Sequence record: PQ471515.1
Length of the DNA stretch: 64,000 nt
Origin: Escherichia phage Turkey3
Strand: one strand, 5' to 3'
A model generated the notes under the pieces. The model saw only the letters and a list, made by a program, of their open reading frames with translations. It was not told the DNA's origin and did no database searches. Made by a program: the position numbers and the translations under genes. Below, piece by piece: positions 46,695 through 47,432 of this stretch (position 1 is its first letter; the number at the start of each line of letters is the position of its first letter).

Positions 46695-47432
46695 TTAGAC
46701 TGAATTGTTAGGATAATATCTCCCACGTCCCCATATTATTCGCACAGCACCACCACCAGCAGCCGTATAAGAAGAATTATCCCATATACTACCACCACCA
46801 CCATACCTCTTACCAGCACCACCACTACCAGCACCACCATTATATGAACCATCGTAGCTACCACCAATACCATTAGCACCTTGAACAATGATACCAGTAC
46901 CACCACCCGTACCAATGAACGAGGTATTATAGAATGCACCACCACCACCGCCACCGCCAGCACCATTTTCACCAGTGATTGCATTTCCGTTACCACCTTT
47001 ACCAGTGTAGCCACCAGCACCACCACCAATGACTGCACCACCACTTAAACCAGTGTTGCCACCATTACCACCACCATCATTAATAGCGTTAGCAGCTTTT
47101 CCACCTAGTCCACCAACCGTATATGCACCAGTGAAGCTAACACATAGTTTTTCAGTTCCACGATATAAACCGTTTTCAACTGCTGTAGTAGTGTTGGGAT
47201 GTGTAAGAGAAACACTTAAGTACTCACCACCAGAAACCGGAATATTATTACGCCACGATAAGCCGCCACCAGCACCACGTTGACCACCCGGAGAAATAAC
47301 ACATACTGATATTTCGGTAACGCCAGCAGGAACTGTAAATTGTGTTGTTCCTATTGTCGTGATTAATTGTTCACCATGTGGCTTATATTCAATTTTATTC
47401 CCGAACTTAACCATTCTTGCAAAAGGTAACAT
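46695..47432 (-). CDS. MLPF-family protein with glycine-rich (GGxGG) domain
   Basis: N-terminus MLPFARMVKFGN; C-terminal half dominated by Gly runs. Confidence 0.75.
   Translation of the reverse strand: MLPFARMVKFGNKIEYKPHGEQLITTIGTTQFTVPAGVTEISVCVISPGGQRGAGGGLSWRNNIPVSGGEYLSVSLTHPNTTTAVENGLYRGTEKLCVSFTGAYTVGGLGGKAANAINDGGGNGGNTGLSGGAVIGGGAGGYTGKGGNGNAITGENGAGGGGGGGAFYNTSFIGTGGGTGIIVQGANGIGGSYDGSYNGGAGSGGAGKRYGGGGSIWDNSSYTAAGGGAVRIIWGRGRYYPNNSV

Follow-up and report, generated by a model that had tools for sequence, protein, structure and literature searches.

The glycine-rich MLPF-family protein of Escherichia phage Turkey3: a probable two-module virion protein with a candidate receptor-binding head

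Within the 64,000 nucleotides of Escherichia phage Turkey3 DNA analysed here (sequence record PQ471515.1; the whole stretch is called the window), the minus strand at 46695..47432 carries a complete coding sequence of 245 codons plus a stop, with an ATG start and the stop codon at 46695-46697. Its product, a protein of 245 amino acids and about 25 kDa that begins MLPFARMVKFGNKIEYKPHGEQ, has a short N-terminal peptide, the MLPF tag, followed by a glycine-rich body. The tag, MLPFARMVKFGN (codons 1-12, 47397..47432), represents a family-wide N-terminal consensus, and a variable linker, KIEYKPH (codons 13-19, 47376..47396), lies between it and the domain. The body opens with a β-strand-rich half (codons 20-105, 47118..47375), modelled as a TNF-like sandwich, in which VPxGV and GGGLSWRNNIPVxxGE are conserved. 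The remainder (codons 106-245, 46698..47117), a predicted polyglycine 'brush', is built of glycine motifs and indel-prone segments, and 39.3% of its residues are glycine (28.6% for the protein overall). In every record inspected where this protein is annotated, it appears as a 'hypothetical protein'.

Glycine is encoded by GGT in 55 of 70 cases, and 11 glycine motifs can be counted across the whole protein. A preliminary description of the window placed a glycine-rich body in the C-terminal ~150 residues and quoted two runs from it, GGGNGGNTGLSGGAVIGGGAGGYTGKGGNGN (residues 120-150) and GAGGGGGGGAFY (residues 157-168). Both runs are present, but the body extends well beyond that part, since residues 20-245 form a single conserved domain in alignment and model alike. 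The glycine/GGT codon composition accounts for a local rise in guanine-plus-cytosine (GC) content of the plus strand (0.45-0.505 across the gene versus about 0.33 in the flanks) and for a plus-strand GC skew of -0.45 to -0.53. Such GGT-rich DNA is also poor in stop codons. The five non-coding frames of the 423-nucleotide glycine-rich part have 3-16 stops each, compared with 15-45 in the adjoining 1134-nucleotide RCC1 gene. This shortage explains three overlapping non-coding open reading frames (ORFs) spanning 46736..47283, namely 46736-47044 (minus strand, off-frame), 46881-47048 (plus) and 47029-47283 (plus). Antisense ORFs here had already been called spurious products of a GC-rich strand bias. 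One of the three overlapping ORFs has been annotated by mistake as gp004 of phage phAPEC6.

The glycine-rich body belongs to a very large family. PHROG 4474, which has no assigned function, matches the protein at E 6.9e-66. The first database search returned 189 homologues, many of them with Pfam domain PF21722 (Gly_rich_2), and homologues at 40-60% identity with conserved motifs are among those known. Proteins bearing PF21722 are reached by phmmer at E 1e-17 to 1e-6, and of 54 homologues in an alignment 13 have a match to this model. The protein itself scores below the gathering threshold of PF21722; its homology to this family is transitive only. The 226 positions of the Pfam model cover the same unit as residues 20-245, whereas the protein itself falls in the divergent subfamily PHROG 4474; the Pfam entry gives no function either. 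A profile search collected 5,923 cluster representatives at E<=1e-3 (1,444 at E<=1e-30). Many of these are proteins of 500-5,500 amino acids in which the domain is C-terminal or repeated, and partner domains in the long proteins sampled include the RCC1 propeller, F5/8-C discoidin and He_PIG Ig domains. For example, P0195 (1013 amino acids) has an RCC1-like propeller at 510-770 and then a glycine-rich domain at 781-1011; RCC1-like and glycine-rich bodies, both of which occur as separate genes in the window, are thus also found fused in one polypeptide.

Conservation in this body is not what would be expected of low-complexity drift. The homologue alignment has 14 invariant and about 30 near-invariant columns, and these are grouped in motifs: VPxGV, GGGLSWRNNIPVTPGE, INDGGGNGG, GGGAGGYxGNGG, GGGGGGG, GGGxG, YGGG and GAVRIIWGxxRxYP. 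Across the family the glycine motifs are conserved, and variable segments and indels cluster between them.

Structure prediction, which the preliminary description had proposed, gave a confident AlphaFold2 model (predicted local distance difference test score, pLDDT, 92.9; predicted template modelling score 0.89). In it a β-sandwich is continuous with a lattice of extended glycine-rich segments. The C-terminal AVRIIWG (residues 229-234) is modelled as a strand, and there are no helices before residue 111. The top structural matches in BFVD are 'glycine-rich domain-containing proteins' from many phages. On this model the body would be a TNF-like plus polyglycine brush domain, a divergent member of a widespread known fold. 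The suggestion that glycine-rich phage fibre homologues might be found was borne out, the domain being of a fibre-tip type; the collagen-like alternative raised with it was not. A collagen-like body was rejected because the longest G-X-Y run is four triplets, residues 106-245 contain one proline, and the model is globular.

Several proteins of known structure have a comparable domain. The tail fibre gp24 of cyanophage Pam3 consists of an α-helical docking domain, a TNF-like domain and a 39%-glycine domain of stacked glycine-rich motifs, and its variable tips have been proposed to bind the host (PMC9608196). Domains of this type have been grouped with that of S16 gp38 as polyglycine, or polyproline II (PPII), 'brush' domains of phage receptor-binding proteins (PMC13243192, PMC13243795). 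Judged from the model, the Turkey3 protein resembles Pam3 gp24 (PDB 7YPX) in the glycine content of its brush part, about 39%, and in the TNF-like/polyglycine fold. Pam3 pairs its fibre gp24 with an adjacent chaperone gene, gp25, whereas the neighbours here are RCC1-like MLPF paralogues. The same brush fold is predicted to be shared with the 'tail wing brush' gp33 and the tail spike brush gp29 of mycobacteriophage Bxb1 (PDB 9D93), although Bxb1 is a siphovirus of a Gram-positive-like host and its gp33 lacks the MLPF tag. In the S16/T2-type gp38 adhesins (PDB 6F45), conserved glycine-rich motifs form a polyglycine II lattice and hypervariable tip segments set the receptor. The variation pattern of the present family, with conserved glycine motifs and variable segments between them, resembles that of gp38. 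The glycine-rich domain of the ALK and LTK receptors (PDB 7LIR, 7LRZ) is also similar. These are metazoan receptor ectodomains that bind a cytokine, outside any phage context, and the similarity is taken as one of fold and not of function.

The nearest characterised relative of the protein is CBB_144 of Pectobacterium phage CBB, a phage of another genus. It has 254 amino acids, starts MLPFSPLIVYGNKI, is 36% identical over residues 1-120 and has the same glycine motifs. CBB_144 sits among the nucleotide-metabolism genes nrdD/nrdG, in contrast to the Turkey3 gene, which lies in an array of MLPF genes.

This array comprises 17 genes on the minus strand (39890..60192). They encode 14 RCC1-like propellers, two Kelch propellers (49834-50724 and 50798-51745) and the single glycine-rich protein, that is, three body types within the window; both genes adjoining the glycine-rich one are RCC1-like paralogues. 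From residue 1 the tag follows the consensus M-L-P-F-x-[RIQ]-[MLI]-x-x-Y-[GA]-N. The membership in the MLPF family claimed earlier is upheld by MLPFARMVKFGN at the very N-terminus, which fits except at position 10; this is Phe here, and Tyr in 49 of 50 distinct tags and in the orthologue of phage 121Q. The tag is far better conserved than what follows it. RCC1 bodies of the array share only 20-27% identity with one another, and seven of the ten invariant columns in the alignment of these paralogues (M1, L2, P3, F4, Y10, G11 and N12) lie in the tag.

This conservation acts on the protein and not on the DNA only, as can be deduced from three observations. Synonymous codons vary at the invariant P3, F4, Y10, G11 and N12, in the window as well as in CBB. 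Five array genes that lack the promoter cassette of the others still carry the tag. The tag is also unstructured, outside the fold and followed by a variable linker in both models examined, that of the glycine-rich protein and that of an RCC1 paralogue. In the former, residues 4-9 have pLDDT values below 50 and the 10-residue block means over residues 1-20 are 48 and 69; in the latter, values stay below 50 through residue 15 and the propeller begins near residue 19. A role of the tag as a 'velcro' strand that closes the propeller was considered and rejected, as the peptide is unstructured in the RCC1 model and is found on non-propeller folds too.

The tag is likewise found on different bodies in other phages. 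Phage CBB (KU574722) has 11 MLPF proteins (CBB_144, 247, 536, 537 and 548-554), which start MLPFxRxxxY[GA]N and are encoded at three unlinked loci (L006 19369-30465, L026 2501-3235 and L002 6001-6765). Their bodies are of at least four types: Kelch, Laminin_G_3, unclassified and glycine-rich. A degenerate DNA scan of IMG/VR for the tag gave 17 loci, all in contigs of 348-378 kb except for one chance ORF of 20 amino acids. The matches head 45 ORFs of widely differing length, including RCC1+Kelch double propellers. The scan pattern required MLPF...YGN, which makes motif statistics from it partly circular; the window and CBB sets came from looser patterns. Among the proteins in these jumbo-phage contigs are some of about 670 amino acids (L013 140-2161, L015 6413-8416 and L022 1903-3933), of which that in L013 joins an RCC1-like and a Kelch propeller. 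Others, of 168-169 and 202 amino acids, have no Pfam match. Papers retrieved from the literature on 'MLPF' with phage, on RCC1 and on jumbo phage structure included no relevant one that mentions the tag.

Conversely, glycine-rich homologues in other phages start M[LI]E[LM]L instead of MLPF. For example, a 150 kb contig from a Plesiomonas metagenome-assembled genome (L004 9176-10744) has tandem homologues of 274 and 247 amino acids with the N-termini MLELM and MIELL. This pair lies upstream of terminase, portal, protease and capsid genes, with two small ORFs between it and the terminase. Outside the Rak2 group, therefore, the glycine-rich family has a conserved N-terminal peptide of its own; in one 20-kb locus it was seen only on the tandem pair and on no other fold. 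With MLPF on several bodies, and the glycine-rich body behind another N-terminus, tag and body must have been recombined. The preliminary description had suggested that the N-terminal peptide is a portable module, and the distribution in both directions bears this out.

Evidence for a place in the virion comes from published mass spectrometry. Tandem mass spectrometry of CBB virions (Table 4 of the paper) detected CBB 144, 247, 536, 537, 548, 549, 551, 552 and 553 (PMC5259590), or 9 of the 11 MLPF proteins. The glycine-rich CBB_144 was represented by 5 peptides with 34% coverage (PMC5259590). The authors could not pinpoint the gene products that form the tail whiskers of CBB and reasoned that the genes concerned ought to be structural and missing from GAP32, a close relative (PMC5259590). 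The virion proteins that they singled out as absent from GAP32 were 144, 247, 536, 537, 551 and 552 (PMC5259590); all six carry the MLPF tag. RCC1-type MLPF proteins have been reported in virions of phAPEC6 (gp003, 005, 006, 007, 009 and 010), GAP32 (gp001) and JP4.

The reading we prefer, with a probability of roughly 60%, is that the glycine-rich protein is a two-module accessory virion protein in which a virion-docking tag carries a receptor-binding head. Residues 1-12 and the seven-residue linker would be a short, unstructured docking or incorporation tag that fits a shared acceptor site of the particle and becomes ordered only once bound. Rak2-like jumbo phages would put this same tag on small binding proteins of the RCC1, Kelch, Laminin-G/ConA-like and glycine-rich types. 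In residues 20-245, loops of the TNF-like β-sandwich would extend into the polyglycine-helix lattice and the resulting brush would act as the head, its variable non-glycine segments contacting a ligand on the host surface. Receptor binding at a distal fibre end is suggested by analogy, from the fold and from the domain partners of homologues, and the protein would lie on the outside of the particle. The protein may then be one of many interchangeable adhesive heads on a 'hairy' virion.

The closest precedent with experimental backing for the mechanism proposed for MLPF is the 'conserved peptide' of the second receptor-binding protein (RBP2) of phages KP32, K11 and KP34. In KP32 this N-terminal peptide of 29 amino acids is required for virion incorporation; the protein folds without it, and a foreign enzyme can receive it by transfer (PMC13352976). 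The two peptides differ in that the KP32 type is unrelated in sequence, belongs to podoviruses and has a known partner, the T4 gp10-like branching domain of a primary receptor-binding protein. In addition, each of those phages has one RBP2 with the peptide, compared with 11-17 MLPF paralogues of several folds.

A number of observations weigh against the two-module reading. The fold was assigned from a predicted model, and Foldseek superimposes this model only poorly on PDB structures as a whole (TM ~0.3). A profile of the 54 homologues found no match among PDB sequences at E<=1, and the protein alone had no match reaching threshold in Pfam or NCBIfam and none in Pfam at E<=0.1. Pam3 gp24 trimerises and docks through its α-helical N-domain, and the Turkey3 protein has no such domain. 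In JP4, a phage of Asteriusvirus, the jumbo coliphage genus matched by the window, the orthologue is not among 49 virion proteins detected by mass spectrometry, which include three other MLPF proteins. The gene is dispensable, given that about half of the related phages do without it. Finally, GAP32 has MLPF proteins yet has not been reported to be hairy, which loosens the connection with 'hairs'; the link of MLPF proteins to the hairs of CBB and phAPEC6 is circumstantial.

Alternatively, MLPF could be a capsid-targeting signal like that of the T4 internal proteins, the tagged proteins then being internal head or inner-body components that are packed with the DNA and perhaps injected. The polymorphic internal proteins of T4-type phages have unrelated bodies behind one conserved targeting peptide at the N-terminus. 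In being short, N-terminal and unstructured, the MLPF tag resembles a targeting sequence, and the association of the family with virions of CBB, phAPEC6, JP4 and GAP32 fits this idea too. The virion of phAPEC6 has a capsid inner body of unidentified proteins, and the authors suggested a 'DNA condensation' role for its RCC1 proteins (PMC7247149), with which internal packaging would agree; where RCC1 paralogues are labelled 'DNA condensation protein', the label is probably owed to a match in name alone. We regard capsid targeting as unlikely and rank it below docking, because the bodies are binding folds of an extracellular type and a conserved cleavage site is missing after the tag. The bodies have folds of ligand-binding types known from outside cells or from fibre tips, such as those of Pam3 gp24, Bxb1 gp33/gp29, the ALK ectodomain, Laminin-G and Kelch, and elsewhere the glycine-rich domain is C-terminal in long proteins, where Ig and discoidin domains accompany it. 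The hairy CBB has virion proteins that GAP32 lacks, all of them MLPF proteins, which also points to an external feature. As to cleavage, residues 13-25 vary and are often proline-rich; Glu after the tag is not conserved across the 17 paralogues, several of which have none in residues 13-25, although the rule of Glu at P1 is T4-type and may not hold for the protease of this phage.

The second alternative requires a look at the expression signals of the array. Upstream of the glycine-rich gene, on the minus strand, are a ribosome-binding site, AAAGGAGGG (47437..47445, 4 nucleotides 5' of the ATG), and a promoter-like box, TAAATATAGTATAAT (47450..47464). Beyond these an intrinsic-terminator hairpin, GCCAGTACTCTGTACTGGC, followed by a T-run (47478..47496) closes the upstream RCC1 gene. 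Another terminator-like hairpin with a T-run (46670..46685) is found directly 3' of the stop codon, on the same strand. With terminators on both sides, the gene forms its own transcription unit. A box of the TAAATATAGTATAAT type and a ribosome-binding site precede 12 of the 17 MLPF genes (intergenic regions of 39890-60192), and a terminator hairpin of the GCCAGTAC-N3-GTACTGGC type also precedes 10 of those 12. The other five genes lack this cassette and are only 9-15 nucleotides from the gene upstream. The box is a putative promoter and went undetected in a sigma-70 consensus scan. Between the glycine-rich gene and its neighbours, about 65 nucleotides upstream and the first ~40 coding nucleotides are nearly identical, and this identity ends just after codon 13.

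The near-identity of these 5' ends raises the idea that they have no role in the protein and are a by-product of tandem duplication and gene conversion of a cassette that runs from the terminator through the promoter and ribosome-binding site to about codon 13, behind which the glycine-rich gene landed by recombination. The box on 12 genes and hairpin on 10 are in keeping with such spreading, as is the presence or absence of the glycine-rich gene as a unit among relatives. This explanation is very improbable, given that the five genes with gaps of 9-15 nucleotides keep MLPF without the cassette, that differing synonymous codons specify the invariant residues, both within the window and in CBB, and that CBB_144 and CBB_247 are tagged at unlinked loci with unrelated upstream DNA. 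The tag has also been kept across genera while bodies have fallen to 20-27% identity or differ in fold.

A few further features of the array can be recorded here. The ORF list opens two array genes too far upstream, at 46659 (TTG) and 60210; their true starts are likely to be the conserved MLPF ATG codons, at 46623 and at 60192, both of which have a ribosome-binding site. The gene at 45274-46623 has no Pfam match and is classed as RCC1-like by its PHROG match. An ORF of 216 amino acids lies on the plus strand within the array span (41092-41742).

Matches to the DNA of the window come from jumbo coliphages of the genus Asteriusvirus, about 350-385 kb in size (for example, 121Q, G17, phAPEC6 and JP4). 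The glycine-rich protein was located by tblastn in 17 Asteriusvirus records at 88-99.6% identity (for example, 121Q gp243 and JP4_CDS0224), and its frame is intact and full-length in at least 16 relatives. Of 35 records with the same flanking DNA, about half do not have the gene; its two flanking paralogues lie side by side in EC.P1. By these sequence comparisons the gene is an accessory cassette and not a pseudogene.

Three orthologues deserve comment. The comparison with 121Q shows 19 differences, of which 6 are synonymous and 13 non-synonymous; a test of non-synonymous against synonymous rates by frame, underpowered at 19 differences, ranked frame 0 the best of three. In phAPEC6 (MK817115; L003 7325-8059) an in-frame deletion of 3 nucleotides in the poly-glycine run leaves an intact ORF of 244 amino acids with one glycine fewer. 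The record shows only the 100-residue off-frame ORF over this gene (gp004, 7716-8018), so that the protein was undetectable in the phAPEC6 proteome; this is probably why it is absent from the published virion data. The orthologue in CMSTMSU (MH494197; L007 301-1035) runs out of frame for about 24 codons (residues 49-72), among them a stop, and is annotated as two fragments; a note on one of these points to an M. tuberculosis protein family. That record is flagged UNVERIFIED, and therefore an assembly error is likely. In 121Q (KM507819; L001 12253-17074) the annotation breaks several array members into short pieces (gp240/239, gp237 and gp235/234), which suggests frameshifted or decaying paralogues, or else sequencing errors.

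That the gene is a decayed pseudogene or a glycine-codon-repeat artefact without a functional protein, a possibility the preliminary description had raised together with frameshifts in related phages, could draw on the low-complexity sequence with several open frames, the missing Pfam/NCBIfam match, the CMSTMSU stretch and a ratio of synonymous to non-synonymous differences unlike strong constraint, but it has a negligible probability and is refuted as far as sequence analysis goes by the frame kept in those 16 or more phages (the phAPEC6 change being in-frame and the CMSTMSU record unverified), the invariant and near-invariant columns that distant homologues, including those at 40-60% identity, retain in this frame, the confident model, the peptides of CBB_144, and the strong ribosome-binding site with flanking terminators.

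The gene and its domain family were already in databases, and the brush fold itself was known. What is new is the assignment of the PHROG 4474 family to this fold, the finding of a single tag across several folds, and the connection between tag and virion incorporation. With the brush fold assigned, a role can be proposed and tested for a hypothetical protein and, with it, for PHROG 4474. Of greater importance is the tag: a single 12-residue peptide is common to at least four or five unrelated folds and tracks closely with detection in the virion. The MLPF set is also a short, explicit list of candidates for the tail whiskers of CBB, for which the tag suggests a route of recruitment.

A broader proposal, offered tentatively and at somewhat less than even odds, is that Rak2-like jumbo phages use MLPFxRxxxYGN as a universal plug-in tag. 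Tagged small binding domains would be mounted on a common acceptor, for which the tail and capsid 'hairs', or whiskers, of CBB and phAPEC6 are the most plausible choice, and the arrays of 11-17 genes would be a fast-evolving library of swappable adhesive heads of the RCC1, Kelch, Laminin-G and polyglycine brush types. If the tag docks, it could serve to display foreign binding domains on jumbo phages, a use to which the KP32 peptide has already been put. If the plug-in proposal is true, these phages would have multivalent, broad-range adsorption, and with it a ready-made display system for engineering.

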